A DNA stretch of 64,000 nt from Dehalococcoidia bacterium (lineage in GTDB: Bacteria > Chloroflexota > Dehalococcoidia > Lucifugimonadales > CBDFII01), in the NCBI GenBank assembly GCA_965248115.1, contig CBDFII010000005.1, positions 154,551-218,550 of the forward strand, read 5' to 3'. The notes beneath the pieces were generated by a model. The model had not been told where the DNA came from, did no database searches, and saw nothing but the letters and a program-made list of their open reading frames with translations. Shown here piece by piece: positions 11,939-55,127 of this stretch (positions are counted from its first letter, which is position 1; every line of letters begins with the position of its first letter). The translations under genes and the position numbers were made by a program.

Positions 11939-12010
11939 AAAGAAGGTAAAGGCTCCGTAGCGGGCGTGGCTACGTCCGCTTTTATTTTTAGCCAGGAGCA
12001 CCTATTAGCT

Positions 12011-13761: not shown

Positions 13762-13836
13762 GCCAAGGTAGCTCAGCGGCAGAGCGGGCGCTTCATAAGC
13801 GCTAGGTCATAGGTTCGAATCCTATCCTTGGCACCA
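13762..13836 (+). tRNA. tRNA-Met (anticodon CAT), CCA encoded
   Basis: I folded the cloverleaf by hand. The acceptor is GCCAAGG/CCTTGGC, the D arm GCTC/GAGC, the anticodon arm GGCGC-TTCATAA-GCGCT, and the T arm ATAGG-TTCGAAT-CCTAT, followed by ACCA. The G1-C72 pair and the lack of three G-C pairs in the anticodon stem argue for an elongator type. An Ile2 (lysidine) identity cannot be excluded. Confidence 0.9.
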
Positions 13837-29823: not shown

Positions 29824-30025
29824 TTTCTCCTCCATCAGTTCGCTATGTTTGTAGAGGGCAGGAAGATGAGGATGCTCTCTAACTCTTATGGGAGAGCTAA
29901 ACCATCTTAGCACAGGGTACTCACCTGTCCTACTGGATGTCTATCTCAAAGTATTTGACATCAAGGTCCAACTCAGTTATGTTCCCTACGCAAAGCAAGG
30001 GAACGCAGCTAGAATGAGGAGAGAA

Positions 30026-30613
30026 ATGCCCCCACAATCAGAGCGATGGCTGGAGATTTTCGAGCCTGTGGTAGCGTATCAGGACACCAGGGCCGTCCAG
30101 ATATCCCCATCGCCTAGGCCCACCAACCTGGAAGGCAAGCGGGTAGTCTTTATTGCCAACTTTAAGCCCCGATCGCTGCCCTTCATGGAGGTAGTGGCTA
30201 CAACGGCATCTCAGCAGATCCATCTGGGAGAGGCTGTCACTAAACAACCCACCTGGCCCTTCACCCACGCAGACCGCCTAAAGGAGATCGAGCCCCAGGT
30301 GGAGGTGCTGGCTAAAACGTGCGACGCAATGGTGACCGGGATAGGGGACTGAGGGGCCTGCACGCTGTGGAGTGTCCACGCAGCGACCAGCTTCGAGAGG
30401 CATGGCATCCCTTCGGTGATAATCGCCACCGACCTGTTCTTGGCTCACGCCCGCCGTCTGCTGGCCAGTCTTGGTTGCGCCCACACCCCCGTAGTGGTGA
30501 CTCCCAACCCCATCGTGTACTTAAATGCGAAGGAAGTTCAGCAACGTGCCGAGGCCCTTGTTCCTGAGATATCTCGGAGTATCACCACCCAGGGAAGACA
30601 GGTCGGAAGCTAG
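30026..30613 (+). CDS. Candidate selenoprotein (U-G-A-C motif); TGA at 30350-30352 read as Sec
   Basis: Track ORFs 29888..30352 and 30416..30613 are in the same frame with only this TGA between them. The translation across it is ...CDAMVTGIGD-U-GACTLWSVHAATSFERHGIPSVIIATD.... It aligns end to end with the paralogue at 49562..50107. An RBS (GAGGAG) precedes the ATG at 30026. Confidence 0.6.
30363..30385 (+). promoter_or_regulatory. SECIS-like hairpin downstream of the in-frame TGA
   Basis: The sequence CGC-T-GTGGA GTG TCCAC-G-CA-GCG forms a 5-bp apical stem plus a G.U pair plus 3 bp. The loop is GUG, and 19 nt separate the TGA from the loop. Confidence 0.35.
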
Positions 30614-30641
30614 TAACCAAAGGGCGATACACAGGAGGGTT

Positions 30642-31703
30642 ATGGTCAATAGAATCAAGATACAGGTGGACTCGGAAGAGGACGCCTCCGCCGATTTCTT
30701 TGACACCGCCTGTGATCGGGGCTGGACCGATGGTCTGCCAGTGATCCCGCCAACCCCCGAACGGGTGGAGGGCATGCTAGCCACAGTAGAGCGAGACCCC
30801 CAAGAGGTGGTCGCCATTCTGCCGCCTCGACAGGGTCCCGCCACTGTCGAAAGCCTGGCCGTTAATGCGGTGATGGCGGGTTGCCGACCCGAGTACTTCC
30901 CGGTGGTGGTGGCGGCAGTGGAGGCCATAGGTGACCCTCGGTTCCCTCGACGCACGCTATCTGGCCACACCCTTGAGACCCCATTCCTGCTCATCAATGG
31001 CCCCATCAGAAGAGAGATCAACATCAACTGTGAGACAGCATGTCTGGGACCCGGACGGCGGGCCAACGCTACCATCGGTCGAGCCCTTCAGCTTATCATG
31101 ATCAACGTAGGAGGAGGCATACCTGATGGGGTGATCAGCACCAATATGTCCTCGCCTCTCCATTACACCTTTTGCGCAGGGGAAAACGAGGAAGAAAGCC
31201 CCTGGGAACCCTTCCATATGGAGCATGGTTACAAGAAAGAGCAGAGCGTGGTCACCGCCTTTCGGGCCACCTCCTACATCGCCCTACTTGCCCCTTTGGA
31301 CTATTGGGACGAATCAGTAGAAGGCATCCTAAGCCATACCGCCGGTTCCATGGTCTCCCCTGATCAAACCGCATTGTATGGGGGAAACCTGTGCGCCTTG
31401 TTGCTGGTAACCCCCGAACGGGCCCAGTTCTTTGCCCAGGAGGGACTATCTAAAGCGGACGTCAAGGCGAGGCTTTGCGAGAAAGCATCGCTACCTCTCT
31501 CTGTTTTTCGCCCGGGAGTGAGGCAGACTTTGGAGGAACTGGGGCGGGTAAAGAGCGATAAAGTTACGATGTTTGACAGACCCGATGAGATTCATATCGT
31601 TGTCATGGGCGGGCCAGGGATCTACTCCATCTTCATCCCTGGCTTCTCTCACGAGGTAGTCCCCACTGCCCCAGTAGGCAAGCTAATCTCCACAGGGATG
31701 TAG
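30642..31703 (+). CDS. Uncharacterised conserved protein (GWTDGLPVxPPT / AVNAVMAGC / RANATxGRA motifs), partner of the TGA-containing gene
   Basis: An RBS (AGGAGGG) precedes the ATG at 30642, 28 nt after the upstream stop. The 353-aa protein is a clear paralogue of 50139..51182. I recognise no family. Confidence 0.7.
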   Translation: MVNRIKIQVDSEEDASADFFDTACDRGWTDGLPVIPPTPERVEGMLATVERDPQEVVAILPPRQGPATVESLAVNAVMAGCRPEYFPVVVAAVEAIGDPRFPRRTLSGHTLETPFLLINGPIRREININCETACLGPGRRANATIGRALQLIMINVGGGIPDGVISTNMSSPLHYTFCAGENEEESPWEPFHMEHGYKKEQSVVTAFRATSYIALLAPLDYWDESVEGILSHTAGSMVSPDQTALYGGNLCALLLVTPERAQFFAQEGLSKADVKARLCEKASLPLSVFRPGVRQTLEELGRVKSDKVTMFDRPDEIHIVVMGGPGIYSIFIPGFSHEVVPTAPVGKLISTGM

Positions 31704-35586: not shown

Positions 35587-37060
35587 GGTCCTCGTCATGG
35601 CCACCACACACATTTAGCCATCCACGCCCGTCCCCAGCAAGAAGGGCATCAGCAGCATCGGGCCCCCACGAGCCCGCCTCATAGATGTGTATCGGGTAGG
35701 CCTTCTCAAGTTCATCTCCTTGCAGCAGCAGATCAACAATGCGCCAGGCCTCCTCGATATGGTCGCTGCGCATAAAGAGAGAGGAGTCTCCCTCCAGGGC
35801 ATCCTCTAGCAGACGCTCGTACGCTTCAGGGATCACGTGGCTCCCAAAAGCGGTGTCATAGTGGAACTCCATGTCAACTGACCTCATGCTCATTCCTTGA
35901 TCAGGGACCTTGGCCTGGAACTTCAGGTGCGCTCCTTCGTCGGGCTGGAGACAAATGGACAGAATGTTGGGGGTTAGGTCCTGGCCGGGTCCCAGCGAGA
36001 ACATCAGGTGAGGTGGACATTGAAACTGGATAACTATCTCCGAGGCCTTCCGTACCATGGACTTGCCTGTGCGCAGGTAAAAGGGCACTCCCTGCCAGCG
36101 CCAGTTGTCCACGTACAGGCGTAGAGCTGCGAAGGTAGCAGTTGTGGACTCGTGAGAGACACCCTTTTCCCCCAGGTAACCCCGATATTGGCCCAATAAG
36201 ACATTCTTAGCAACATCTTCGGGGGTCCACCGCCGAATAGCCTTGAGCACATCTACTTTTCTATTCCGCAGGGAGTCGGAGTCCATGGCGCTGGGCGGCT
36301 CCATAGCGACCATAGTGAGCAACTGAAGCAGATGATTCTGCACCATGTCTCGAATCACGCCCGAGTGATCGTAATAACCCGCCCGATCACCTACTCCGAC
36401 ATCCTCGGCCACGGTGATTTGCACATTATCCACGTAGTTACGATTCCACACTGGCTCGAATATTGCGTTGGCGAAGCGGAACACCAGGAGGTTCTGCACT
36501 GTCTCCTTGCCAAGGTAGTGGTCGATGCGGTAGACCTGGGTCTCGTCGAAGTACCGGTGTATAAGCTGATTCAGAGACTGGGCTGACCCGACATCGCTCC
36601 CGAAGGGCTTCTCTATGACAATTCGGCGCCAGCCCGAATCCTCCTTCGCCAGACTAGAGGCTCCCAGGTTTTGAATCGCCTTTTCATATAGGTTGGGGGC
36701 AATCGAGAGGTAGAACAGCCGATTGGCAGGGCGTCTCTCACCTTCCAAACTCTTCAATTGTTCCTCCAGGCGAGCGAGGTGATCCAGTTCCCCCAGGTCT
36801 CCGACAACGTAGTGAATGTCCTGAGCAAACAGCTCCCACTCTTCTCTGGGCACCGCCAGCTCACCGAACTCCTGCACACCCTTCCACATAACCTCCCGGA
36901 ACTGATCGTCCGAGTGGTCGGAACGGGCAAAACCGACGATTTGCAGACCTTCTGGGAGCCGCCCCTTGCACCGCAAGTTGAAAAGCGCTGGTACCAGCTT
37001 CCGCCGAGTCAGGTCACCGGTGGCACCCAGTATAACGATGGTTGTGATGCCGTCTGACAT
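35579..37060 (-). CDS. zwf: Glucose-6-phosphate dehydrogenase
   Basis: The motifs [25 protein letters not shown] and EKP are present in a 493-aa ORF. Confidence 0.95.
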
Positions 37061-37968
37061 TACTCAACCTTTTTGACGGCATGGCCGCCAAACTGATTTC
37101 GCATGGCCGCCAGTACTTTGCCACCGAATGGCTGGTCCTGGCGGGAGCGGAAGCGCGCCTGAAGGGACTGAGTGATCACTGGCGCTGGCACCGCTAGCTC
37201 GATGGACTCCTGTACCGTCCAGCGGCCTTCGCCAGAGTCTTCAACATACGACTGTAGGCTTTCTAGCTCGGGGTCTTCATGAAGGGCTGAGGCCGTCAGG
37301 TCCAGCAGCCAGGATCGCACTACGCTCCCATATCGCCAGATTTCGGCAATCTGGGCCAGATCCAGACCAAACTCCCCCTTCGCCTGCATCAACTCAAATC
37401 CCTCTGCGTAGGCCTCCATTAGGCCATACTCGATGCCGTTGTGTATCATCTTAACGAAGTGGCCTGCCCCGGCAGGGCCAACGTGGCCGTACCCCTTATC
37501 TGGCCCAGGGGCCAACGTCTGTAATATGGGCTCTACTCGGCGGAATGCTTCCAGGTCGCCCCCCACCATGAGGCTGTAGCCCTCTTTAAGGCCCCACACA
37601 CCACCGCTAGTACCGGCATCCAGAAAGAAGAGGCCATGCTCCTTGAGGGCCGTCGCTCGACGTATGCTATCCTTGTAGTAGGAGTTACCACCATCGATGA
37701 TGGTGTCACCTGAAGATAGCGCCCCGGCCAGGGTGTCGATAGTGCTCTCCGTTGGCTCGCCCGATGGCACCATTACCCACACCGCTCGCGGGGAGGCAAG
37801 CTGTACTACCAGGTCGGCAATGGCAGAGGCGCTTACAGCTCCTTGCTGGACAAGGACTTGAACCGCTTCCGCACTTGGATCGTAGACCACCACCCGGTGT
37901 CCTCCGTGGAGTAAGCGCTGGGTCATATTACCCCCCATACGGCCCAGACCTATCATTCCTATTTCCAC
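37060..37968 (-). CDS. gnd: 6-phosphogluconate dehydrogenase (decarboxylating), short ~300-aa form
   Basis: The motifs [21 protein letters not shown] and HF.KM.HNGIEYG are present. The stop overlaps the zwf start (TAATG). Confidence 0.85.
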
Positions 37969-38031
37969 GATACACTCCTCTCCAACAAGCTATCTTCCGT
38001 GAGACGGGTTTGAGCGGGTCTCGGTCTCAAC

Positions 38032-39015
38032 CTAGACGGCCTTCGCTCCTGATCGTGCCTTTGTAAACAGCTTGTAGAATCCATGATATCCACTGGCCAC
38101 CCAGTTTACGGCTTCATCACGGGAGATTTTACCCTCCTTGTGGTTTACCAAGGGTTGCCAGAACACCGTTCGCCCTACGGCAAAACCGATGACCCCTTCT
38201 GTCTGTGCACCAATGGTGAGCCATGTGCCAACTCGTTGCTCATCCTCTCCCCTTCCCAGAACAATAATTCCTACATCTTTCCTTCCATCGGCACGAGCCT
38301 GCGCCACCAGGTCGCGGGCTGCCTTGCCATCGTCTGTTCCCTCCAGTTTCCAGACATCTGGCTCAACCCCGGCTGCTTGCAACTCAGCCATAGCCTGCAC
38401 AGTGAAGCCAGGTCTTAGACGCAGGTCATAGACCCCCGAGTCCTGCCCCACCGATTCCAGTTGAGCCGTGGTTGCCGGTACCAGCATCTCGAACATGAAC
38501 TTGTACCCCACTGAGTGAACGTGGTCGGAAAGCACCTTCAGTCGCCGCCGCTGGTTCCCATTTACCTGAGCGTCGGCATCTGGATTGTAGCGGACTAGCA
38601 CTTTAGCGAATGTTGGATTCGCTTCCGCAAATACCCTTCCGAAGTCTTCACCGTACTCAAAGTCGAACTCTGCCTGACCGCTTTTTCCCACAGGCACACA
38701 GGTTATAATGCCCCGCTTAGCTGCGTCATCAAGAATCTCCCGCCCATAGGTCTGATCAACCAAGATGGCAGCAGTCTCTTGGGGAACGCCCTGCTTCAGG
38801 GCCAGTAAGAACCCATCGTAGACGATGCGCTTGAACCCTGCTAGGTTTTCCTTTTCATGGGCCTCGGGCTCTCTGCCGCGGATCCCCAGGAGTCCCGCTT
38901 CGAAGGATGACCGATGATCGAAGGGTAGCACAAAAAGCTCTTTTCTAAACCCTAGCTGTACGGCGTTCATTTCTTGGCTCTCCCTCCCATCCCTCGTTGT
39001 CGAGTTTTGCGCCAT
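38032..39015 (-). CDS. Class I aldolase-like protein (LacD/DeoC-like; DUF2090-like)
   Basis: The motifs FVLPFDHRSSF and VWKLEG fit the layout I recall for 2-deoxy-5-keto-D-gluconate-6-phosphate aldolase-domain proteins. The assignment comes from memory of motifs only. Confidence 0.55.
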   Translation of the reverse strand: MAQNSTTRDGRESQEMNAVQLGFRKELFVLPFDHRSSFEAGLLGIRGREPEAHEKENLAGFKRIVYDGFLLALKQGVPQETAAILVDQTYGREILDDAAKRGIITCVPVGKSGQAEFDFEYGEDFGRVFAEANPTFAKVLVRYNPDADAQVNGNQRRRLKVLSDHVHSVGYKFMFEMLVPATTAQLESVGQDSGVYDLRLRPGFTVQAMAELQAAGVEPDVWKLEGTDDGKAARDLVAQARADGRKDVGIIVLGRGEDEQRVGTWLTIGAQTEGVIGFAVGRTVFWQPLVNHKEGKISRDEAVNWVASGYHGFYKLFTKARSGAKAV

Positions 39016-39048
39016 TCAGTGGGCCATCCGGTTGTGTTCTTGTATTCG

Positions 39049-39828
39049 TCACTGTACAACATCCAGTAAATCGTGCTGGTCATGGACAATCCAGGCATGT
39101 TCCAACACCTGGTTGGTGTGAAGGCCCATTGTGGTAAATGGCGTCGCTAGGCCAATGACGTTAGCACCAGCGGCAACTCCTGCACGGACGCCGGCGATAG
39201 AGTCTTCCAGAACCAGGCAGTCCTCCGGAGCCACCTTCAGTTTTTTTGCTGCCAGCAGATATATCTCCGGGTCAGGCTTAGGTTTCTCCACATCTTCACG
39301 TGTCAGCACCACGTCGAGAGACTGTTCTATATCTAGAGCATGCAGAACGTGCAACGCCTCTTGGCGATAAGACATGGTTGCCAGGGCCGTCCGGCAAAGG
39401 GTCTCTTTGGCGAGGCGTAGCAGGCCAATGGTGTGGGGCCACTGGTTGTTTCGGAGCACCTGGGGATCGGCCACCATCTCGTCGTATATGACCTTCCTCA
39501 TAGCGGAGAGCACTCCCACAGGCTCCGACGCCTCATACTCGGACAATAGTGGTCGAAGGTGTTCCTCCAGTCCGAGGCTTTTCATGATATGACGGGAGGC
39601 CGCTTCTCTGGATGCACCCACTATCTCCCGGTAAGCTTCAATGGCTCGTGAATCAGGCTCTGGGAGTCCCTGTATGCGCTGGGCAGCGATGGCATAGGAG
39701 AGAGCCTTCAGCTTCTCCGTCTCCACCAGGGTACCGTCCAGATCGAACATGATGGCTTGTATCACGATTATCCTCGACTGCTTGATCTCATCAGCAACCC
39801 TCTGGCTATCAACCTTGAAGCGCCCCAA
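39049..39828 (-). CDS. HAD-family hydrolase (beta-phosphoglucomutase-like subfamily)
   Basis: The motifs MFDLDGTLVETE and a C-terminal LEDS..G..AG are present. Confidence 0.8.
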   Translation of the reverse strand: MGRFKVDSQRVADEIKQSRIIVIQAIMFDLDGTLVETEKLKALSYAIAAQRIQGLPEPDSRAIEAYREIVGASREAASRHIMKSLGLEEHLRPLLSEYEASEPVGVLSAMRKVIYDEMVADPQVLRNNQWPHTIGLLRLAKETLCRTALATMSYRQEALHVLHALDIEQSLDVVLTREDVEKPKPDPEIYLLAAKKLKVAPEDCLVLEDSIAGVRAGVAAGANVIGLATPFTTMGLHTNQVLEHAWIVHDQHDLLDVVQ

Positions 39829-41173
39829 AGGCCCGCTGGACTACCTCTGGGAGGGCTGGATGCACGTAGATGGACTGGCTTATCGCATCGGTAGTTAGGC
39901 CCATTCGCATGGCGTTTACCGCCTCCTGGATGAGTATGGAGGCATCGGTGCCAATGATGTGGCAACCGAGGATCTCTCCGGTCTCAGAGTGGGCCAGCAC
40001 CTTGACAAAGCCGTCTCGGTCCTCAATGGAGGATCCATAGGCGGTGTTGTAGTAGTCGTAGGTGCCCGCAATGTAAGGAATGGCGTCATCCTTTGCGGTT
40101 TGCTCGGTTATTCCTACACTGGCAACCTGGGGCGAAGCAAAAATGGCATGGGGCATAGCACGGTAGTTCACCGCTACCTTGTGCTCCTGGTTGAAGATAT
40201 TGTTGGCCACATAGGCTGCCTCCAGGTTGGCGCTGTGCTTTAGCAGGTACTTCCCGACGATGTCTCCCAGAGCCCAGATGCCCGGCACCCTAGTCTCCAG
40301 GTACTCATCGGTCTTGATGAACCCTTGCTGATCAGTCTCGACTCCGCTTCTAGCTACCTCCAACAGGTCCGTGTTGGGGACCCGACCGGTAGCAATAAGA
40401 AGAGCATCGGCAGCGACGGTCGCTGTGTTCCCATCTACCGACACATCCACCGTAATCTCATCCCCGTGGCGAGAGACGGAGGCGACATGAGAGTTCAGGA
40501 GAAGATTGAGCTTACGCTGGTACACCTCGGTAAAACGACGAGCGATATCTTCATCTTCGTTTCGAAGCAGGATGGATCGCCGGTGCACTATGGTAACCTC
40601 TGTGTCCAAAGAGCTGAAGAAATGGGCCATCTCGGCAGCGATGTATCCCCCACCAACAATGACGAGTCGCTTGGGCTGCTCCGGTAGTCGCAATGCCTCG
40701 TCGGAGGTAATATATAGGGTATCCCCCAGGCCTGGTATCTCCGGAATCGAAGGGCGGGTGCCCGCCGCAATAACTACGGTCTCGGCGCTGATGTGCTCTC
40801 CATTGACTTCCAGGGTCTTTCCCTCCACAAATCGGCCGATGCCCTTATAGACCGTGGTGTTGGGAGCTTCTCGGTTACCCTTCTCGATGGCCTGGGCGTC
40901 GCCGTCGATTTCGTCAAATGCGCGCCGGATGATGAAGGACCAGTCCACCCCTTCTACCTTGGCCTTGATGCCGAAAAGCTCTGCCCTATGGATGGTCTCC
41001 ATCACATCGGCACAATGGATTAGCATTTTGGAAGGGATGCAACCCCGGTTCAGGCAAGTCCCGCCAAAGGGCCCTTGCTCCACCACAGCCACCGACAGCC
41101 CTCGAGCTGCAGCTTCTGAAGAGACCTCTAATCCTGAGCCCGAACCAATCACGATTAGGTCGAAGCTCCTCAC
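39809..41173 (-). CDS. Class I pyridine nucleotide-disulfide oxidoreductase (dihydrolipoyl dehydrogenase / mycothione-glutathione reductase-like)
   Basis: The motifs DLIVIGSGSG, the redox disulfide GGTCLNRGCIPSK, and C-terminal HPALPE are present. Confidence 0.85.
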   Translation of the reverse strand: MRSFDLIVIGSGSGLEVSSEAAARGLSVAVVEQGPFGGTCLNRGCIPSKMLIHCADVMETIHRAELFGIKAKVEGVDWSFIIRRAFDEIDGDAQAIEKGNREAPNTTVYKGIGRFVEGKTLEVNGEHISAETVVIAAGTRPSIPEIPGLGDTLYITSDEALRLPEQPKRLVIVGGGYIAAEMAHFFSSLDTEVTIVHRRSILLRNEDEDIARRFTEVYQRKLNLLLNSHVASVSRHGDEITVDVSVDGNTATVAADALLIATGRVPNTDLLEVARSGVETDQQGFIKTDEYLETRVPGIWALGDIVGKYLLKHSANLEAAYVANNIFNQEHKVAVNYRAMPHAIFASPQVASVGITEQTAKDDAIPYIAGTYDYYNTAYGSSIEDRDGFVKVLAHSETGEILGCHIIGTDASILIQEAVNAMRMGLTTDAISQSIYVHPALPEVVQRAFGALQG

Positions 41174-41222
41174 GAGACCTCTCTTGTAGGGAGAAGTTCA
41201 AAGTGCATAGTTATCCTTCCCA

Positions 41223-43985
41223 TTAGGGCAGGTTCCTGGCCAACTGCCCGATCTCTGACTCGCCATCCCGTGCCACGTGGATTTTTGCAGTGGGTCGGCC
41301 TAGATCCTGCAAAGTTCGCAGGTCTCCCAGGGCCTGAGCCTCGGCCAGCATGCCGAAGGTATACGGCTCTCCAGGGATGCGTAGGTCCGTCTCATGGTTC
41401 CCAGTTACCTGAAGGAACAGGCCTGTGGCTGGGCCTCCTTTGTGAAGCTGGCCTGTAGAGTGTAGAAATCGTGGACCGTAACCCAAAGTGGTGGCGATAT
41501 GGTACCGCTGCATGACCTTCTCCCGGAGATCTGCTAGAGCTCGGTCTACACCTGCCGTTTGCGGTAGGTATGTCATAATGGCCAGGTAATCGCCACGCCT
41601 AGCTTCAGACAGCAGGTCCTGAAGGGAGTCCTTGGTCGTCATCTCCGGAAGCCGACCGGATGTTTGGTATTCCTGCAACATCCTCGCCGTCAGGTCTTTG
41701 GCATGTTGCACGTTGGGCTGGTCAAAGGGGTGAATACCTAGAATAGCCCCCGCTACTGCGGTTGCCAACTCCCAGCGGAAGAACTCAGCGCCAAGGTCGT
41801 ACAGGTCTCGCAAGTCCAGACGCACCACAGGCTGCCCGGAAGCTTCCATGCTCTCAATGGTGGCGTCGGTATCGACATTATCGTCGCCCTCAAGTCTCAA
41901 ATAGACAAACAGCCGGTCAGCGCCGCAGTATGATGGGTCTATTAAGGGCTCACCCACAACAGGTATGATGCCCTTTCCATCCTTTCCGGTGCTCTCGGCG
42001 ATGAGCTGCTCCACCCAGAGCCCAAAGGAGCCAATAGATGGCGAAGAGACCAGGGTGAGCTTGTCAAGGCCTCTTAGAGCAAGTGAGCCCATGGCTGCTC
42101 CAAGCCAAGCACCAGGGTTTTCATTGAGGGGCACGCAAGAGGTGCAGCCTTCACGCATACAGTCTGCACGGTTGAGCAACTCTGCGATGTCTATTCCAGT
42201 GAGGACCGCAGGGACCAGTCCGAAATAGGAGAGTACTGAGTAGCGCCCTCCAATATCAGGGGGGGTCAGAAAGAGACGACGGAACCCGTGTTCCTGTGCC
42301 AGCCTTTCGAGAGATGTTCCAGGGTCAGTGATAGCCACGAAGTTCCTGCCGACCTCTGCATTTCTAACTACCCCTTTTACTAACGCTCTGAAGTGCTGGT
42401 AAAGGGACAAAGTCTCGATAGTGCCGCCTGACTTGGAGGAGACGAGGAACAGGGTCTTCGTTGGGTCAATGCTCGCCGTCACAGCATGCACCGCTTCAGG
42501 CACTGTGGAGTCTAGGACGATGAGCTCAGGATACCCAGCGCTGTTTCCGAATGCCTGTCGAAGTACCTCTGGCCCAAGGCTACTCCCACCCATGCCCAGC
42601 AACACAACATAGCGATAGCCATCTTCCCTCACCTCCTGAGCGAAAGCTTCTAAAGCGGGGACCTTCTCGCACATCAGATCGGTAACAGTAAGCCACCCCA
42701 AGCGGTTGGTGATTTCCGTAGGATCAGATTTCCAGACAGTGTGGTCTTTACGCCAGATACGACCCACCACATCCCGTTTTTGTAAGTCGGCGACAGTTGT
42801 CTCCACATCTTGTAGCATTTTGCCCAGGCTGACACCAAAGGGACCACGCTCTCGCGCCAACAGCCGCCCCTTCTTCTCCTCGATATTGGCCATCAGTTTG
42901 TCGAAGGAGTCGGCAAAGCTCTTCACTCCATCGGACAGAAGCTTCGTCGTGACCTCGTCCATGCTTATACCTGTTGCTGCGAGGGACTCCGTCGTCTGGT
43001 GGGCTTCTGTCACGTCCTGCTCCAGGGTCGCCTCCACGCAGCCGTGCTCCAAAAAGGCCGTGAGCGTGGGGGGTGGCACCGTATTTACGGTGTCCGGACC
43101 AACCAGCGACTCCACGTACAGCAAGTCACTATAGGCGGGGTTCTTCGTGCCGGTGCTGGCCCAAAGGGGACGCTGCACTCGAGCGCCTTTATCCCGTAGG
43201 ACTGCGAAACGCTCGTCGGCAAAGGTGTCCGTGAAGGCCTCATAGGCCAATTTGGCGTTGGCAATGGCAGCCTTGCCCATGAGAGTTGTAAGCTCTTTCT
43301 CTCCCTGACGGATACGCTCCTCCAGTAGACCATCCACAACTGCATCCACTCGGCTTACGAAGAAAGACGCTACCGACGCCACTCCGCCTAAGTCTCGGCC
43401 AGACTGGGCCAGATCCTCCAGCCCACTAATATAGGCCTCCATCACCTGACTATATACATCTAAGGAAAAAATGAGAGTGACATTAACATTGATGCCTTCA
43501 CCTATGAGGGAACGGATAGCGGGGATACCCTCGGGAGTAGCTGGCACCTTGACCATTACGTTGGGTCGGTCCAGGGTAGTGAACAGGCGCCTGGCATCGC
43601 TGATGGTGCCCTCCGTGTCATGGGCCAGTGCCGGACTCACCTCCAGGCAGGCATAGCCGTCGGCTCCATCTGTACGGTTATAGACGGTTCTCAGTAGGTC
43701 TGCAGCATCACGAATGTCTGCTACCACCAGCGCCTCATATATTTCTTCGGTGCTCTTGCCCGATTGAGCCAAGGATATGAGCACCTCATCGTAGTCGGTG
43801 CTTCCGGCAATGGCCTTTTCAAAGATGGTTGGATTGGAGGTCACGCCAGATACCCCCTGCTCTATGAGCCGATTAAGCTCCCCGGAGGTAAGCAGCCCTC
43901 GACGCATATTGTCATACCAGATAGCCTGGCCTAGGCGCTGGGCCTCCTGGATAGCATCGGCCCTGACATTACTTCTCGTACTCAT
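41223..43985 (-). CDS. Bifunctional transaldolase / glucose-6-phosphate isomerase
   Basis: The N-terminus (GQAIWYDNMRR...TSNPTIF...VKVPAT) is transaldolase. The C-terminal ~550 aa is PGI-like. The ATG at 43985 shares one base with the rpiB stop. Confidence 0.9.
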   Translation of the reverse strand: MSTRSNVRADAIQEAQRLGQAIWYDNMRRGLLTSGELNRLIEQGVSGVTSNPTIFEKAIAGSTDYDEVLISLAQSGKSTEEIYEALVVADIRDAADLLRTVYNRTDGADGYACLEVSPALAHDTEGTISDARRLFTTLDRPNVMVKVPATPEGIPAIRSLIGEGINVNVTLIFSLDVYSQVMEAYISGLEDLAQSGRDLGGVASVASFFVSRVDAVVDGLLEERIRQGEKELTTLMGKAAIANAKLAYEAFTDTFADERFAVLRDKGARVQRPLWASTGTKNPAYSDLLYVESLVGPDTVNTVPPPTLTAFLEHGCVEATLEQDVTEAHQTTESLAATGISMDEVTTKLLSDGVKSFADSFDKLMANIEEKKGRLLARERGPFGVSLGKMLQDVETTVADLQKRDVVGRIWRKDHTVWKSDPTEITNRLGWLTVTDLMCEKVPALEAFAQEVREDGYRYVVLLGMGGSSLGPEVLRQAFGNSAGYPELIVLDSTVPEAVHAVTASIDPTKTLFLVSSKSGGTIETLSLYQHFRALVKGVVRNAEVGRNFVAITDPGTSLERLAQEHGFRRLFLTPPDIGGRYSVLSYFGLVPAVLTGIDIAELLNRADCMREGCTSCVPLNENPGAWLGAAMGSLALRGLDKLTLVSSPSIGSFGLWVEQLIAESTGKDGKGIIPVVGEPLIDPSYCGADRLFVYLRLEGDDNVDTDATIESMEASGQPVVRLDLRDLYDLGAEFFRWELATAVAGAILGIHPFDQPNVQHAKDLTARMLQEYQTSGRLPEMTTKDSLQDLLSEARRGDYLAIMTYLPQTAGVDRALADLREKVMQRYHIATTLGYGPRFLHSTGQLHKGGPATGLFLQVTGNHETDLRIPGEPYTFGMLAEAQALGDLRTLQDLGRPTAKIHVARDGESEIGQLARNLP

Positions 43986-44455
43986 TATGACCCCCCTTGA
44001 ACAGCCTTGTGCTCGATGGCCTGCACCTTTTGAAGGCGACGGCAATGTCGCTCCTCTCCGCTAAAACGGGCATGGAGAAAGGCTATTATCAGCTCCTTGG
44101 CCAAATCCATCCCAACGACTCGGGTCCCCAGGCAGAGGATGTTCATATCGTCGTGCTCCACTCCCTGGCGGGCCGAATAGGTGTCATGACATAGGCCAGC
44201 CCGAGCACCGTTCACCTTGTTAGCAGCGATGGAGGCACCTACACCGCTGCCACACAGCACTATGCCACGCTGTGCTTCATCTGAAACCACTACTTGAGCC
44301 ACCGCTTCCGCAAAATCTGGATAGTCGTCAGAGGGATCCAGGGAGTGGGCACCCAGGTTTAACACCTGGTATCCCTGATCTTGCAGCCACGATAGCAGAT
44401 CGGCCTTCAATGGAAAGCCCCAATGGTCAGCGCCCAGGGCAACGAGCAGCCTCAT
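43985..44455 (-). CDS. rpiB: Ribose-5-phosphate isomerase B
   Basis: The motifs [22 protein letters not shown] and C-terminal RH.RR are present. Its start overlaps the tkt stop (ATGA). Confidence 0.9.
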
Positions 44456-46470
44456 ACCCTTGCCTCTTGTAACAGTCCCATGGCCTCATCTATGACCCGC
44501 TGCGCTGTCAGGCCCAACTGCTGGTAGAGCACTTCGCCTGGGGCTGACGCGCCAAAGCGGGACAGTCCCACGACTACGCCGTCCAGTCCCACATACCGCT
44601 CCCAACCTAGAGAGCTGGCCGCTTCTATAGAGACCCTTGCCCGTACCTCCGTGGGCAAAACGCTGTTACGATACTCTTCTGGCTGGCTATCGAACAGCTC
44701 CCAGGAGGGCAGTGAGACAACGCGGGCGGAGATTCCCCTCTCCTGAAGACCCTTTCCCGCCTCAAGGGCGATGTGAACCTCGGAGCCGGTAGCAATGAGA
44801 ATGATATCAAAGTGTGTCGCAGCTTCCCATAGCACATATCCGCCCCGTCGCAAGCCCCTAGTAGAAGCCACATCCGTCCGCTCTAGTACAGGCAAGTTCT
44901 GACGGCTAAGCACAAGGACAGTTGGGCCGTGTGTCCGCTCCAGTGCTACTCTCCACGCCTCAACTGTCTCAGTCGCATCTGCGGGTCGGATTACTACCAG
45001 GTTTGGTACAGCTCTAAGACCCATGAGTTGCTCTATAGGCTGATGGGTGGAACCATCCTCACCGAGACCGATGGAGTCGTGAGTGAAGACATAAATAACA
45101 CGCAACTTCATGAGAGCCGCCAGGCGCATGGGAGGGCGCATATAGTCGGAAAAGATGAAAAAAGTGGCAGTATAAGGGATGATACCTCCATGAAGCGCCA
45201 TACCATTGGCAATGGCACCCATGGCGTGCTCCCGAACCCCAAAGTGCATGTTGTGGCCGCAATACTCCTCAAACCCGTAATGCCCGTGGTCTTTGAGGGT
45301 GGTCTTGGTAGAGGGCGACAAATCGGCTGAGCCTCCAGTGAAGGCATGAACTCTATTAGCGATATCGTTCATCACCTGACCTGAGGCCTCCCTGGTGGAG
45401 ATGGACTTGTCCACCCCTCTAAACTGGTCCTCAAGATCACGGTCCCAGCCGTTAGGCAGCTCTCCGCGCAGGGCCTCTTCTAGCTGCTGGGCCTCTTCCG
45501 AGTAGGCCTGACGGTAAGCCTCTAACCTGACCAGCCACTCCTCCTGGTAGAGCTTGCCCCGCTCCTGAGCCTGACGAAAGTAGTCTAGAGCCTCAGGGGG
45601 CACGCTGAAAGGCTCTTGGTAGGACCACCCCAGGCGCTCTTTGGCAAGACCTACTTCCGCTTCTCCTAGAGGCTCGCCATGGGCAGCCGCAGTGCCTGCC
45701 AGGTTAGGACTTCCATAGCCTATTATAGTGCGGCAGATGATGAGGCTAGGGCGGGTGGTCTCTTGCTGGGCCATACGGATGGCCGAGTCCACAGAAGCGA
45801 TATCCATTCCGTCTACAGGGCCGATTACATGCCAGCCGTAGGCCTGGAATCGCTGGGCTACGTTCTCTGCAAAGGCGATGTCGGTATTGCCCTCAATGGA
45901 GATGTCGTTGTCGTCGTATAAGTAGATGAGCTTGCCGAGACGCAACGTACCTGCCAGCGAGGCCGCTTCAGAGGCGACACCTTCCTGGAGGTCACCATCG
46001 GAGACGATGGCGTAGGTGTAGTGGTTGACTATCTCGTGATCCGGCCGGTTGTAATGCTCTGCCAGCCACCTCTCCGCTATGGCCATACCCACACCATGGG
46101 CGAATCCCTGGCCGAGAGGGCCCGTGGTCATCTCCACACCGGGAGTAAGCCCATATTCTGGGTGGCCTGGCGTCTTGCTTCCCCACTGCCGAAAACGTTT
46201 CAACTCCTCCAGTGGCAGGTCGTACCCGGTGAGATAAAGAAGGGCGTATAGCATACCTGAGGCATGACCTGGCGAGAGGATAAAGCGATCCCTGTCTGGC
46301 CACGTCGTGTGGTTGGGGCTATGTTTGAGGAAGCGGTCCCACAATACAAAGGCCATCGGAGCCGCACCCATGGGAGTACCTGGGTGGCCAGAGTTCGCCC
46401 GCTGCACGGCATCTACAGCTAAAAACCGGATGGTGTTAATGCACAGTTGCTCAAGCCCAGGGTCGGCCAT
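44452..46470 (-). CDS. tkt: Transketolase
   Basis: The motifs [20 protein letters not shown] and GDG.L.EG are present. A strong RBS (AAGGAGG) precedes the ATG at 46470; the track ORF extends to 46527. Confidence 0.95.
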
Positions 46471-46931
46471 TGGTGCCTCCTTGCGTAGTCTGCCACGCCC
46501 GTTGGCCACTATGAGCGCAATAGTCATTAAGGGCGCCGTAGGGATGGCGTTGCCTCTCTATTACCTTTTGATGCGCTGAATCCCCCTTAAGGTTTGCCTC
46601 ATTTGCTTCCACACGCTCTTTTACTCTAATCATTTCCGCCCCTGCAGTCCAGGGAAGTCTTGTCCCGCGCTCTAAACCATTCTTCACTCCCAAAATACCG
46701 TTTCATAGCAGCATTAATCGCTTCCATTCGCTCTACGAGCACCGCAGAGTCCATTGAACCTATGGCTTGCTTTGAGGATGCTCCTTAGTCAAGAAGCTTC
46801 ATGTGAATCATCCATTATCTCCTTCTATGTGCCTACCAACTATGCTCTGCGTCGCGAAGTGGCACAATGTGTCAAGAGGGAAGTAAAGTACTAGAGGTAT
46901 AATGGGAGAAATTGTTACACAGACTCGTGGG

Positions 46932-49377: not shown

Positions 49378-49561
49378 CTTGCGCTCCCCATTTGTGAAGT
49401 CTAGACAGGCGAAAATAGTGGCTGATAGCCACGTTTGTATCGCTTTGAAAGCGGGCCCCCAGTGTTCTCAGGAACAGTACAACGCCGGAGCGAGCTCTCT
49501 TCAGCGGAGGTATTACCTACCCGATCTCCAGGGAGCCTTAACTCTCTTATAGAAGGGGCCC

Positions 49562-50107
49562 TTACCCCTTGCCCATCAGCAGTTGCAGCACCTGGGGCAG
49601 TGCCTGACGGGCCCGATCCCACAACTGCTCTTCGGTTAGGGCGGTGATGGGGTGGGGCAGCACAACATAGGGGTAATCGGGTATGCCCTGGATCTGCGCC
49701 GTCATGTTGGCAGTTGGAATAAAGGGCTCGGTGCAGATGACCGCTGCGGGTTTACCCTGCTTCTCGATGGTGATGCCGTCGTGCACACTGCACGAACTGC
49801 AGGACCCTCAATCCCCTGTGGCAGTCACCACCATGTCACACTGGCTTAGCAGCTCTTGAAGAAGATCATCGGGGCAGGGACGGCTGGCGTTGCCCTTGTC
49901 GCGGGCAACGACCCCCTGTATCTGGTAGTGCTCCGCTATAAGGACACTTACATAGTCCAACAGCTTGTCGGCATTTCGTTTGCCATTGGAAAGTAGGCCC
50001 ACAGTCTTGCCGTTAAGGGATTCGGGCCTTGGCGCCATGTCTCCATGGGCTGGCATGGGCGGTACGGTGGGATTCAAAACGGTAAACTTGTCAGTTTGAA
50101 CTACCAT
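49562..50107 (-). CDS. Candidate selenoprotein (U-G-S-C motif); TGA at 49808-49810 read as Sec
   Basis: Track ORFs 49808..50107 and 49562..49786 are in the same frame with only this TGA between them. The translation across it is ...CDMVVTATGD-U-GSCSSCSVHDGITIEKQGKPAAVICTE.... A strong RBS (TAAGGAGG) precedes the ATG at 50107. Confidence 0.65.
49779..49795 (-). promoter_or_regulatory. SECIS-like hairpin downstream of the in-frame TGA
   Basis: On the minus strand, TCGTGCA GTG TGCACGA forms a 7-bp stem with a GUG loop. Again 19 nt separate the TGA from the loop. Confidence 0.35.
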
Positions 50108-50138
50108 GCGTTACCTCCTTACCTACTTTATGGGATTG

Positions 50139-51182
50139 TCAAATTTGACTTGTATCGATCTCCATAATAACGGAGCGTGACCCAATGCCGCCACCCCATA
50201 AGGGGATAACAGAGGCGAAGGCTCCAGCCTCTCCACCGGCGGTTATGAGGGTGATAGATTCGGGACTGAGGCAAATGGGAACCTTCTCCTTCTCCTTGGC
50301 AGGATCCGCTAAAGGCTCGGACCTGCTTGCCCGGGCCAGATCTCCGGCGGTACGTTGGGCGTCCTCAAAGAGGAACTGCCTCACTTGGGCCTTGGTCCAC
50401 CCAGCCTCCTTGATAGGGATCGTTAGCTCAGGAGAGATCACGACGATGATCTCGCCCTGGCCTGGGCCAGCAGCCCGGATAATATCGCTTATGCTGACCA
50501 GAATCCCCTCGGGGGTGTTGCCAACAACATTGGTTACCTGCCAGGGTGCAAGGGAAGCAAAGACAGTAACAGCACTTCGCTCTCGTGAGATTCCTCGTTC
50601 CACATGCAGGGGCTCCCAGGGGCTAGACTCCTCGTATTCGGCGAAGCAGAAGGAATATTTGCCAGGATGGCCCAGGGTGGACTTATCCAGTACCCCGGGG
50701 ATGGTACCGCACACGTTCATCAAGACCAAGCGCATGGCCCGGCCTACTGTGGCATTGGCCCGCCAGCCGGAGCCGAGGGCGTTAACGCCGCTGTTGAATC
50801 CCAGTTGATACCGTACAGGGCCGTTGACTACTACAAGTACAGTGGAGCCCTGGGTGCTAAGGGCACAGCTGTGGAGGTTAAAAGGGTCTTGGCAGATTGC
50901 ACGGACGGCAGCGGCTACCACTGGCATATATTCGGGCAGGCATCCGGCCATAACAGCGTTGATGGCCACCTTTTCAGCAGTGACCACACGTCCGCGGCCC
51001 GGCACCACGCCCAGAACATCGGAAGGAGCTAAGCCAGCCCTTTCCAGCGCCGCCACGACCTTAGCCTCAGTAGGTGGAACCACGGGCAACCCATCAGTCC
51101 AGCCCTGACTATAATAGAGCTCTATAGCTTCTTCTTGATCGGCAACCTGGATACGCTCGGAAATAACAGGCGACGTGCTCAT
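50139..51182 (-). CDS. Uncharacterised conserved protein, paralogue of 30642..31703, partner of the TGA-containing gene
   Basis: An RBS (GGAGGG) precedes the ATG at 51182. It shares the motifs GWTDGLPVVPPT, AINAVMAGCLPEYMPVVAAAV, GWRANATVGRA and EESSPWEPLH. It ends 31 nt before the downstream gene. Confidence 0.7.
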   Translation of the reverse strand: MSTSPVISERIQVADQEEAIELYYSQGWTDGLPVVPPTEAKVVAALERAGLAPSDVLGVVPGRGRVVTAEKVAINAVMAGCLPEYMPVVAAAVRAICQDPFNLHSCALSTQGSTVLVVVNGPVRYQLGFNSGVNALGSGWRANATVGRAMRLVLMNVCGTIPGVLDKSTLGHPGKYSFCFAEYEESSPWEPLHVERGISRERSAVTVFASLAPWQVTNVVGNTPEGILVSISDIIRAAGPGQGEIIVVISPELTIPIKEAGWTKAQVRQFLFEDAQRTAGDLARASRSEPLADPAKEKEKVPICLSPESITLITAGGEAGAFASVIPLWGGGIGSRSVIMEIDTSQI

Positions 51183-51442
51183 GGTGATCCCTCCGAGAAA
51201 GAACCTCATTATACGTACCACTGTGGTAAGAATCAACCAATCAATGAGGAGAGGAGCTTCCATAAGTTAGCCACTGGGGGTGGTAATCATATCCCGTAAG
51301 ACGATTGACATAGAAACCTAAGTCGGTTATGTTGCCCTGGGTAGGGACTAAATCGCCAGTCATCTCCTCGAAATTACTCCTTGAACCCGCACTTCAGATA
51401 GAGTTTTGTGCTTAAATACAGTAGTGGAGGAGGGCATCTACA

Positions 51443-52350: not shown

Positions 52351-52379
52351 TTGGATTGTTGTCTAAAGGGGAGGTAAGG

Positions 52380-53639
52380 ATGCTTAAGATAGGCCATTAT
52401 GTTGAACGCCCCGGGTTGAAGCCAAAGGATGCTCCTGTAACCATCCCTGTAGCCGAAGAGCTTGAGAGCGTCCCAGGAATCCCCCAAAACCCTGCGGACG
52501 TCGACTGGTACAGCCGGGAGTATCCCGAAGAGACTCAGCAGGTGGAATACACCGCCGACCGGGAATGGGCCAACACGGTGCTTACACCTGAGGCCAAGGA
52601 GTTCAAGGAATTACACGAAAAGGTAATGGAACCTATCTACAAGCGCATCAGGGTCTCGGGGGATATCGAGCCCACAGCCCAGCCCACCGGCGAGGACGTG
52701 ACGGAGAAGATCAAGGCCAAGGCCCAAGAGTTGGGCTACCGTGAGGTGGGCATCGTCAAGTACGACCACCGTTATACATATAAGAGCGTGAAGCACTTCG
52801 TAAAGTACGAGCACGCCATCTGCCTGATGATGGAGCAAGATTACGAGCAGACCCAATCGGCTCCTAGCATGGATGCCGAGCACGGCCACTTCGGCACCTA
52901 CGAGATGCAAGGAATCGCTGGGCAGCGTCTCGCCGACTACGTCCGCTCCTTGGGCTACCATGCCCAAATACACGGCCCCAGCAACCACAACGCCGTAACC
53001 ATCCCCATGTTTGTTGAGGCAGGGCTGGGCCAATTGGGGGCTAACGGTCAGCTTCTCTCACCCCACTTCGGCTCCCGTGGCAGGCTCCAGCTCATTACCA
53101 CCGACGCCAAGGTAACCTACGACAAGCCGGTGGACTACGGGATCCACCGCTTTTGCCAGGTCTGCCAGGTGTGTGTCAATCGCTGTCCTGGGCGGGCCCT
53201 TCAGCGGGAGAAGGTGTGGTGGCGAGGCGTAGAGAAGAACAAGCTGACATACAAGCGCTGTGCCCCCGTGATGTTCCGCTATGAGGGGTGTGCCGTGTGC
53301 ATGAGGGTGTGCCCCATTCAGAAGTACGGAATGAAGGCCGTGATGGAGCACTACGTGGACACTGGGGAGGTGCTGGGCAAGGGCACCCACGAGCTGGAGG
53401 GCTACGAGATGCGGGGCAAGGGATATTTCGGCCCCGGCCAGCTTCCCACCTTTGACAACCAGTTCTTCCAGATCCCCCATGGCCGCACCGAGGACATGCT
53501 CTTTGAGGATTTCAAAGCTGAGCTCATCGACGGCGAGCTTCCCTCGGGCTCAGATGGGATCCGCATACTGGAGGAGTTCAAGGCCAATGTTAAGCACGCC
53601 TTGGACGAAGCCGCCCGGGCCACCAACCCTATGGACTAG
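52380..53639 (+). CDS. Reductive dehalogenase / epoxyqueuosine reductase (RdhA/QueG)-superfamily-like Fe-S protein, no signal peptide
   Basis: The core EAGLGQLGANGQLLSPHFGSRGRLQLITTD is followed by CQVCQVCVNRCP (C-x2-C-x2-C-x3-CP) and C-x10-CAVCMRVCP. An RBS (GGGGAGG) precedes the ATG at 52380. Confidence 0.65.
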   Translation: MLKIGHYVERPGLKPKDAPVTIPVAEELESVPGIPQNPADVDWYSREYPEETQQVEYTADREWANTVLTPEAKEFKELHEKVMEPIYKRIRVSGDIEPTAQPTGEDVTEKIKAKAQELGYREVGIVKYDHRYTYKSVKHFVKYEHAICLMMEQDYEQTQSAPSMDAEHGHFGTYEMQGIAGQRLADYVRSLGYHAQIHGPSNHNAVTIPMFVEAGLGQLGANGQLLSPHFGSRGRLQLITTDAKVTYDKPVDYGIHRFCQVCQVCVNRCPGRALQREKVWWRGVEKNKLTYKRCAPVMFRYEGCAVCMRVCPIQKYGMKAVMEHYVDTGEVLGKGTHELEGYEMRGKGYFGPGQLPTFDNQFFQIPHGRTEDMLFEDFKAELIDGELPSGSDGIRILEEFKANVKHALDEAARATNPMD

Positions 53640-53840: not shown

Positions 53841-55127
53841 ATGCTTAAGATAGGTCATTACGTTGAACGTCCCGGTAGAAAGGCAAAGGACCCATCTGTC
53901 AACATCCCTGTAGCCGAAGAACTGGAAACGATCCCAGGCATCCCCATCCATCATCAGGACGTGGAGTTCTACTCCCGTGAGTATCCCCTGGAGTTCATCA
54001 ACATTGTCGAGCGTGCGCCTCAGGACTGGGCCAACCAGCTTGAAGACTCCAATCCAGACACTCGGGAGATCCATAACGAGCACAGACGCCTTAACAAGCC
54101 ACTAATCGAGGCGGCCCGTCGCACCGGGGATATAGAGCCTACGGATATGCCCACGGGCGAAGACGTCACTGATAAGATCAAGGCCAAGGCTCGCCAGCTA
54201 GGCTTCGGCGAGGTGGGGATCACCAAGTACGATCATCACTATACTTACGAGAGCAAAAAGAGCTGGGTCAAGAAGTACCCCCATGCCATCTGTCTGGCTT
54301 ACGAGCAATCCTACGAGTCCACCCAGTCAATCCCTAGCGTGGCAGCGGAGATTGTCCACTCCAGTACCTACAGAACCGAGGGTGCTGTCAGCCTAGACCT
54401 GGCTGATTACATTCGCACTCTGGGGTATCACGCCCAGGTACACAACCCCAACGACAACACCGGTGCTTACATACCCGTGTTCGTGCAGGCTGGGCTAGGC
54501 CAATTGGGAGCCAACGGTCAGCTTCTCTCCCCCCACTTTGGCTCCCGGTCCAGGATAATGCTCATCACTACCGATGCTAAGGTGACACACGACCAGCCTG
54601 TGGACTATGGCATCCATCGCTTCTGCCAGATATGCCAGGTGTGCGTCAACCGCTGTCCCGGGCGGGCACTGATGCGGGAAAAGATATGGTGGCGGGGCGC
54701 AGAGAAGAACAAGCTGATCTATAAGCGCTGCCGCCCGGTAATGGCCCGCTACCTTGGCTGCGGTGTCTGCATCAAGGTGTGCCCTGTCCAGAAGTATGGT
54801 ATGAAGGCCGTGATGGACCATTACGTGGCCACGGGGCAGGTGTTGGGCAAGGGCACACACGAGTTGGAGGCATATTCCATGGAGGGCAAGGGCTATTTCG
54901 GACCCGGTCAGCTTCCGTCATTCGACGCCGAGTTCTTCAATATGCCCCACGGCACTGCTGAGAATCACGTGCTGGAGCAGTTCAAGGAAAAGTTCCAGGA
55001 GGTCGACGATATTGACTCATCTGAGGGTGAAGCCCTGTTCGAGCAGTTCAAAACCACCCTGGTAACGGCTTTTGGGCTAAGCCCCAACTACGACCCCCAA
55101 GAGCAGGAGGATACCCCAAACTTCTAA
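53841..55127 (+). CDS. RdhA/QueG-superfamily-like Fe-S protein, tandem paralogue of 52380..53639
   Basis: The two proteins share the first 12 residues (MLKIGHYVERPG), the same core and the same two Cys motifs (CQICQVCVNRCP; C-x10-CGVCIKVCP). Confidence 0.65.
   Translation: MLKIGHYVERPGRKAKDPSVNIPVAEELETIPGIPIHHQDVEFYSREYPLEFINIVERAPQDWANQLEDSNPDTREIHNEHRRLNKPLIEAARRTGDIEPTDMPTGEDVTDKIKAKARQLGFGEVGITKYDHHYTYESKKSWVKKYPHAICLAYEQSYESTQSIPSVAAEIVHSSTYRTEGAVSLDLADYIRTLGYHAQVHNPNDNTGAYIPVFVQAGLGQLGANGQLLSPHFGSRSRIMLITTDAKVTHDQPVDYGIHRFCQICQVCVNRCPGRALMREKIWWRGAEKNKLIYKRCRPVMARYLGCGVCIKVCPVQKYGMKAVMDHYVATGQVLGKGTHELEAYSMEGKGYFGPGQLPSFDAEFFNMPHGTAENHVLEQFKEKFQEVDDIDSSEGEALFEQFKTTLVTAFGLSPNYDPQEQEDTPNF

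Follow-up and report, generated by a model that had tools for sequence, protein, structure and literature searches.

The UGSC family of selenoproteins has been described since 2007-2008 (Zhang and Gladyshev, PMC1976440, PMC2398784). The 'UGSC-containing protein' was first reported as a selenoprotein of unknown function (PMC1976440), and in the Global Ocean Sampling data it was among the most abundant selenoprotein families, with 255 forms containing selenocysteine (Sec) and 21 containing Cys; its fold was labelled 'likely a Trx-like fold', and a fusion with an undefined 'Unknown_1' domain was noted in 2008 (PMC2398784). A 2026 review still lists UGSC as uncharacterised (PMC13188914). Here we describe a UGSC gene with one in-frame UGA codon (49562..50107, minus strand), and the gene directly upstream of it, referred to as the partner, in a stretch of 64,000 nucleotides from a Dehalococcoidia bacterium (assembly GCA_965248115.1, contig CBDFII010000005.1, positions 154,551 to 218,550 of the forward strand). 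This whole stretch is called the window. We consider it likely that the two genes form an operon in which a Sec-decoded, flavodoxin-like UGSC protein serves as the dedicated redox module of the partner enzyme.

The window protein shows no essential difference from the UGSC family as it is curated in NCBIfam (NF041046) and Pfam (PF24696): it has the same length, the GD-U/C-G-S/A-C motif and scores above the cut-offs, in a family in which Sec and Cys forms coexist and which is abundant in aquatic metagenomes. When U is replaced by C, the protein scores 160.2 bits against NF041046, 'UGSC family (seleno)protein' (curated cut-off 125; profile positions 2-146 of 147), and 197.7 bits against PF24696, 'UGSC' (cut-off 25; profile positions 2-171 of 172). 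The gene is an ordinary member of a known family, and a sequence-only reading of the window, which had flagged it as a candidate selenoprotein, was correct but not new. The selenoprotein call itself is of small import, as the family is curated and the NCBI annotation pipeline already has a model for naming it; its main effect is to show that the public record of this genome cuts the gene at the UGA (the deposited product has 99 aa). What goes beyond the two papers (PMC1976440, PMC2398784) is the flavodoxin-like predicted fold, the definition of a Sec insertion sequence (SECIS) for the Dehalococcoidia clade, and the identification of the partner family with a count of its fusions. Apart from the 2008 note on the 'Unknown_1' fusion, we could not find the hypothesis of a UGSC-partner enzyme stated in the available literature.

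Two other groups of selenoproteins share the arrangement around Sec. GrdB bears a UxxCxxC motif (PMC13188914), and in the B selenoproteins of glycine, sarcosine, betaine and D-proline reductases (GrdB, GrdF, GrdH and PrdB; TIGR01917, TIGR01918, PF07355) the same U-x-x-C-x-x-C as in UGSC follows a hydrophobic strand and is itself followed by E..G-I/K-P and PHP motifs. GrdB and PrdB act with a separate substrate-binding protein, as we propose for UGSC. However, UGSC corresponds to only about the last 200 residues of GrdB, without its N-terminal 270 residues, and UGSC occurs in Dehalococcoidia/SAR202 and in a wide range of aerobic Proteobacteria and Actinobacteria rather than in Stickland fermenters. 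Thioredoxin-fold UxxC/CxxU selenoproteins (Prx-like, Trx-like, SelW-like and DsbA-like) also carry Sec at a helix N-terminus in a redox dyad, and they too have Cys-containing homologues and a bacterial SECIS directly 3' of the UGA. The thioredoxin fold, a mixed four-stranded sheet with CxxC on helix 1, is not that of UGSC, which is predicted to be flavodoxin-like. Some partner proteins bear a true AhpC/TSA-Redoxin domain where UGSC would be, which suggests that the two are analogous in function, not homologous.

Reading frame, UGA codon and SECIS-like hairpin

Read on the minus strand, 50107..49562 is a single frame of 181 codons plus TAA in which one UGA is read through: 99 sense codons from the ATG at 50107, the TGA at 49810..49808, 81 sense codons, and the TAA that ends at 49562. 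The 21 nt between the TGA and the downstream open reading frame (ORF) at 49786..49562 are the 7 codons GSCSSCS, and that ORF itself has 74 codons, is in frame with the upstream half and ends in the TAA. The sequence-only reading had given these coordinates, the joined 181-aa frame, the single TGA and the stop-free spacer of 21 nt, all of which we reproduced from the sequence; the strong ribosome-binding site that it placed before the start is AAGGAGG (50114..50120, minus strand), 6 nt upstream of the ATG. Around the TGA the product reads ...CDMVVTATGD-U-GSCSSCSVHDGITIEK..., with the motif GD-U-GSCSSC, so that UGA codon 100 (49808..49810, minus strand) would supply the first residue of U100-x-x-C103-x-x-C106. 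An open run of 81 codons past a stop has a probability of about 2% by chance alone ((61/64)^81). It is the comparison with orthologues, beyond this argument from length, that places the 181-codon frame far outside chance.

In an alignment with 120 full-length database homologues, 118 of them have Cys at the position of the TGA and 2 have W, the latter being gene calls made under a code in which TGA means Trp. The Cys three residues after the Sec column (C103) is invariant (122/122) and the third Cys is present in 112/122. A scan of one genome per species, with the N-terminal alignment as the query, returned 80 orthologous loci, nearly all from Dehalococcoidia, Chloroflexota or SAR202 metagenome-assembled genomes (MAGs). 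The TGA is retained in all 80, followed by 80-83 sense codons that start GSCSSCS[VM]HD, and the median identity to the window protein is 61% after the TGA vs 54% before it. A check proposed in the earlier reading, whether U/C is invariant at this column across homologues, came out in its favour: the column is almost always Cys in the database proteins and TGA in every orthologue. That reading had also regarded homologues ending at the TGA as damaging. Database proteins do end there, the sole exact match to the window gene being a 99-aa product (P0001), and gene callers produced 99-aa proteins for the window gene and about 20 related sequences; this is a gene-calling artefact, and the DNA continues in frame and is conserved beyond the TGA.

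TGA is the ordinary stop of 8 of the 32 window genes, including the gene directly upstream of UGSC, and a genome-wide reassignment of TGA is therefore excluded. In 7 of the 80 related loci the UGSC orthologue is followed, 0.4-3 kb downstream, by a tRNA-Sec gene with anticodon TCA (L029 3988-4085; L043 7270-7367; L054 3564-3661; L062 9112-9209; L068 7415-7512; L076 6641-6738; L080 8749-8845), and the three of these genes that were checked with Rfam RF01852 scored 62-72 bits. With tRNA-Sec genes beside its orthologues, the clade can therefore be taken to decode Sec. Together, the TGA aligned with Cys, its presence in 80/80 orthologues and the covarying hairpin at SECIS distance described below bear out the candidate selenoprotein, and UGA codon 100 almost certainly encodes Sec.

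The proximity of tRNA-Sec and UGSC in 7 of 80 Dehalococcoidia/SAR202 genomes is far above the expectation for a single-copy gene in a 12-kb locus. Beyond the tRNA-Sec in L043 and L054, the two loci checked, lie genes for a class-V aminotransferase (cysteine desulfurase or selenocysteine lyase type), an agmatinase and an AdoMet decarboxylase; where Sec machinery was looked for next to tRNA-Sec in these relatives, only these three were seen.

Downstream of the UGA, codons 105-110 (S-C-S-V-H-D; 49779..49795, minus strand) can form the hairpin UCGUGCA-GUG-UGCACGA, with a stem of 7 bp and a GUN loop. From the UGA it is 13 nt to the start of the hairpin and 20 nt to its apical loop. All seven pairs are formed in all 72 distinct orthologous sequences, among which there are two double compensatory changes and three G-U wobbles. 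One compensatory change, G-C to C-G in L022, turns Ser UCG into UCC and replaces His with Gln; the other, in L080, is C-G to U-A. Synonymous sites are frozen, with a third-position entropy of 0-0.21 bit within the stem vs 0.6-1.9 bit in the flanking codons. The Ser codons of the stem are fixed (UCG in 71/72, AGU in 72/72) and the Ser just before the stem uses all six codons, while the first two loop bases (GU) are invariant. The hairpin is absent at the matching position in three Cys-type homologues, and no Rfam family matched it. We take it to be a probable bacterial SECIS that directs Sec insertion and to which SelB would bind.

Fold, relatives and partner of the UGSC protein

For the fold we used an AlphaFold model of P0003, a Cys homologue 49% identical to the window protein, computed from a 124-sequence alignment. 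The model (pLDDT 94.9) is one five-stranded beta-alpha domain of the flavodoxin-like type, built from five parallel beta-alpha units. The Cys that corresponds to Sec comes after strand 3 and before the first turn of helix 3, at the N-terminus of that helix, and the next Cys follows one helical turn on; in the model this placement is the classic redox-dyad geometry. The sequence-only reading had predicted a flavodoxin-like N-terminal half: the fold type held, and its restriction to the N-terminal half did not, as the model extends it over the whole protein. The same reading had put Sec right after a hydrophobic strand, in agreement with the position after strand 3, and had proposed a structure prediction to see whether U and the Cys three residues later lie like a redox pair, as they do in the Cys homologue P0003. 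A Foldseek search of the PDB returned generic flavodoxin-like folds only (flavodoxin, WrbA, lumazine synthase, RpiB, PTS IIB), with TM scores of 0.4-0.5, and there was no thioredoxin fold among the matches of the P0003 model; the predicted structure lends no support to the 'Trx-like' label of the literature. A PDB sequence search gave no match for UGSC, its profile or the partner.

The only non-self NCBIfam matches of the window protein are weak ones to TIGR01917, TIGR01918 and GrdH, centred on their Sec region, and PF07355 was not matched. We assembled a set of 55 GrdB sequences from metagenome genes fetched by a pattern encoding U-G-T-C-T-R-C-G-A and aligned the UGSC profile to it with hhalign, which gave an E-value of 4.3e-5 and a probability of 69% over 86-164 columns (E 0.29 for a reversed control). 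The alignment puts Sec on Sec and matches up the UxxCxxC, E..G.P and PHP motifs, and with -mact 0.05 it reaches 164 columns, about the last 200 residues of GrdB. The UGSC domain is thus a probable distant homologue of the Sec-bearing domain of GrdB, which is not the same as membership in that family. The partner was also considered as an equivalent of GrdE, PrdA or the N-terminal part of GrdB, and was rejected as such, hhalign finding no similarity.

The partner gene (50139..51182, minus strand) encodes 347 aa and stops at a TGA, 31 nt upstream of the UGSC start; its longest ORF reaches 51263, and the database protein P0025 is 100% identical to it and starts at M28. A promoter-like TTGATT-17-TATAAT lies 5' of the partner gene (51208..51236, minus strand) and a terminator-like hairpin about 130 nt past the UGSC stop (49418..49432, minus strand), both found by consensus scan. 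Promoter-like sites are no commoner in the window than in shuffled sequence, and this one is only consistent with an operon. The partner and UGSC genes are probably co-transcribed; they share a strand, are separated by so short a gap and are flanked by the promoter-like and terminator-like sites, although both of these occur at chance frequency.

No Pfam or NCBIfam family matched the partner, and a Pfam search with 121 members of the partner family at E up to 1 gave no consistent family. The family is large, with 7,420 cluster representatives (clusters defined at 50% identity) at E <=1e-3 in a library of 1.84 billion. The AlphaFold model of the partner is confident (pLDDT 91.6) and resembles nothing solved; the multi-domain Foldseek leads (class I fumarate hydratase with a TM score of 0.3, Toblerone-fold amide hydrolases, PurM-like proteins) were too weak for an assignment. 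The partner is an enzyme-like protein, and its conserved residues are W28, D30-G-L-P, P36-P-T, A-G-C81, E84-Y85, R141-x-N143-x-T145-x-G-R148, C179-x-x-E182, P188-W189 and G316-G317. We considered a 4Fe-4S enzyme and rejected it, as only two Cys are conserved and each of these has one exception. It is possible that the partner is the 'Unknown_1' domain of the earlier literature (PMC2398784).

The pairing of the two genes is widespread. In 63 of the 80 Dehalococcoidia loci the partner lies directly upstream of UGSC on the same strand, with a median gap of about 38 nt, and in 9 others it is found elsewhere within 6 kb. No other gene is conserved around UGSC: none occurs in more than 14 of the 80 loci, apart from an opposite-strand ORF that overlaps the UGSC gene in 50 loci and that we take to be a spurious antisense ORF. 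In seven loci (L025, L028, L061, L064, L065, L067 and L069) the partner lies 2-3.5 kb upstream of UGSC and is encoded on the other strand; L001 has no partner within 6 kb, yet the same contig encodes one elsewhere (P0029).

Cys-type UGSC genes are paired in the same manner, with a partner homologue (39-48% identity) next door in all seven cases, from Saccharopolyspora, Nocardioides, Janthinobacterium, Bauldia, Luminiphilus, a Steroidobacteraceae MAG and a Chloroflexi-like metagenome contig. These pairs span Actinobacteria and alpha-, beta- and gamma-proteobacteria; on the Chloroflexi-like contig the two genes are separated only by inserted IS elements. The Cys-type neighbourhoods are often catabolic, not consistently so, and include an acyl-CoA ligase, an acyl-CoA dehydrogenase, an aldehyde dehydrogenase, a luciferase-like monooxygenase and an amidohydrolase. 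At the Janthinobacterium locus (L205) an 86-aa ORF (4552-4812) follows UGSC.

UGSC and the partner also occur in one polypeptide. Among the 150 best partner-family representatives, 36 contain UGSC, in both orders: 9 are complete Cys-type UGSC-partner fusions, 22 start just past the Sec position, being Sec-type fusions cut at the UGA by gene callers, 4 are partner-UGSC fusions that end ...GD, likewise cut at the UGA, and 1 has a partial UGSC match outside these three patterns. The same 150 include 5 with an N-terminal AhpC/TSA-Redoxin CxxC domain instead of UGSC, 3 fused to a NifU-like CxxC domain and 7 tandem partners. The fusions in both orders show UGSC and the partner to be functionally linked, and the presence of an unrelated thiol-redox domain where UGSC would be points to a redox role for UGSC. 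This pattern suggests that UGSC is the redox module of the partner.

P0018 was rejected as a natural fusion and looks like a frameshifted read-through of the partner 3' end. The NifU-like CxxC domain, which is small, is found at the C-terminus of the Cys-type UGSC protein P0145 and at the N-terminus of three partner proteins (P0274 and two others), which hints at a third component of the system.

Proposed mechanism and rival explanations

The operon would be read in the order of the 347-aa partner gene and then the 181-aa UGSC selenoprotein gene. The hairpin would be the binding site of SelB with Sec-tRNA(Sec), and Sec would be inserted at UGA codon 100 rather than translation terminating there. 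The UGSC domain, which in other species is fused to the partner, would dock on it. Sec100 is predicted to cap the N-terminus of helix 3, one turn before Cys103 and two turns before Cys106, and would attack either a substrate bound to the partner or an oxidised Cys of the partner (C81 or C179). Cys103 would resolve the adduct to give a selenenylsulfide, which a thioredoxin-type system would re-reduce, so that the Sec100/Cys103 pair would cycle between selenol/thiol and selenenylsulfide. UGSC would in this way be the nucleophile or reductant for the partner, as the Sec domain of GrdB or PrdB is for its substrate-binding subunit. The opening steps of this scheme draw on sequence and comparative evidence, and we infer the chemistry from the motif, the modelled geometry, the relationship to GrdB and the fusion pattern.

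Several observations weigh against this proposal. The 8 of 80 loci with no partner within 6 kb show that adjacency is not obligatory. The window contains no tRNA-Sec, selA, selB or selD in its 64 kb, and the capacity of this organism to decode Sec is deduced from its relatives. There are only two double compensatory events in the hairpin, each in a single sequence, and the folding energy of the single sequence is not distinguishable from that of shuffles (z -1.4); the evidence for the hairpin is therefore purely comparative. The structure comes from a homologue with 49% identity rather than from the window protein. As for GrdB, the scores are far below the cut-offs (19 bits vs 602 for TIGR01917, 15.4 vs 65 for TIGR01918), the 69% hhalign probability gives the homology moderate confidence, and the locus has no grdA, grdE, grdC, grdD or prdA neighbours; the genes that do lie nearby encode an NHL-repeat protein, an MFS transporter, an alpha/beta hydrolase and Fer4 proteins.

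The plainest alternative is that the TGA is a true stop, which would leave a 99-aa gene followed by a separate 74-aa gene or a pseudogene. The 99-aa products of the gene callers, for the window gene and its relatives, are in line with it, as is the lack of Sec machinery visible within the window. Termination at this TGA would, however, break up one alpha/beta domain, with the cut falling after strand 3 and before helix 3, and the second ORF would have to start from a GTG inside the conserved motif, its only start codon, with no ribosome-binding site. All 80 orthologues keep the TGA together with the downstream frame and the hairpin, and the Cys homologues are continuous. The comparative data effectively refute a true stop.

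If the full-length protein is made, it could still act without a dedicated partner, as a thioredoxin-like thiol/selenol oxidoreductase that works alone on the disulfides or peroxides of the cell in general. This is the view stated in the literature (PMC2398784); the UxxC at a helix N-terminus is as in thioredoxin-fold selenoproteins, and the loci without a nearby partner would fit it. We consider it improbable, given that the model is flavodoxin-like, with a parallel five-stranded sheet for which Foldseek found no thioredoxin relative, and that partner pairing and fusion are pervasive. It is about as improbable, perhaps slightly more so, that U/C-x-x-C-x-x-C provides metal or iron-sulfur ligands and is not a redox pair, UGSC then carrying or supplying a metal centre at its interface with a metalloenzyme partner. 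The spacing equals that of a ferredoxin CxxCxxC, NifU-like CxxC fusions exist (P0145, P0274), and the best structural matches of the partner, weak as they are, are class I (4Fe-4S) fumarate hydratases. Yet about 8% of family members lack the third Cys, among them the second UGSC copy in the window (W) and the modelled homologue P0003 (Y), the two conserved Cys of the partner both have exceptions, the peroxiredoxin-like CxxC that replaces UGSC in some fusions points to thiol chemistry, and the TM scores of the Foldseek matches of the partner are only 0.25-0.36.

Returning to UGSC as the redox module of the partner, a wider reading is that the two are parts of an unrecognised and very widespread selenol- or thiol-dependent reductive enzyme, whose redox module shares an ancestor with the Sec domain of GrdB/PrdB and can be swapped for a peroxiredoxin-like domain. 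We put this forward tentatively, as a possibility that falls somewhat short of an even chance. If true, the presence of such an enzyme in marine SAR202/Dehalococcoidia and in many aerobic Proteobacteria and Actinobacteria would explain the abundance of UGSC in aquatic metagenomes. The partner family, the Rosetta-stone fusions, the peroxiredoxin-like replacement and the link to GrdB/PrdB make the function of UGSC testable, and the named Cys-type hosts Saccharopolyspora mangrovi, Nocardioides and Luminiphilus syltensis NOR5-1B look most accessible for genetics and biochemistry.

Second copy and other features of the window

The sequence-only reading had reported another instance of the same arrangement near 30026..30613. 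We find there a paralogous UGSC gene, copy 1, on the plus strand at about 30014..30616 (the start is uncertain), with its TGA at 30353..30355; it belongs to the same family and matches NF041046. Copy 1 is 28% identical to the UGSC protein described above, copy 2. Its motif is GD-U-GACTLWSVH, in which W takes the place of the third Cys, and a hairpin with a 7-bp stem and a 9-nt loop lies at the same distance from the TGA. The GD-U-GACTLW variant is also seen in the natural UGSC-partner fusions P0362 and P0365. A paralogous partner gene (30642..31703, plus strand; start inferred from AGGAGGG and ATG) lies downstream of the copy 1 UGSC gene, which reverses the order, and its product is 35% identical to the copy 2 partner (E 2e-57).

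A tandem pair of paralogous genes, at 52356-53639 and 53841-55127 on the plus strand, encodes proteins of 427 and 428 aa. Their only match is a sub-threshold one to 4Fe-4S dicluster domains (Fer4_16), and they may be reductive-dehalogenase-like or QueG-like proteins without a signal peptide. Elsewhere in the window, one stop-to-stop frame at 11939-12928 (plus strand) joins RNase H (residues 26-148) with MoaC (186-321), and another at 4550-6004 (minus strand) joins SfsA with an HhH-GPD DNA glycosylase domain; these could be true fusions or adjacent genes in the same frame. A Mutator-family (IS256-like) transposase gene (14727-15971, plus strand) lies about 900 nt past a tRNA-Met gene (13762-13836, plus strand). 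A compact pentose-phosphate cluster occupies 35582-46527 on the minus strand. Its glucose-6-phosphate dehydrogenase and pyridine-nucleotide disulfide oxidoreductase are confirmed by Pfam, and a 940-aa transaldolase/glucose-6-phosphate isomerase fusion, RpiB and transketolase are named from their translations only.

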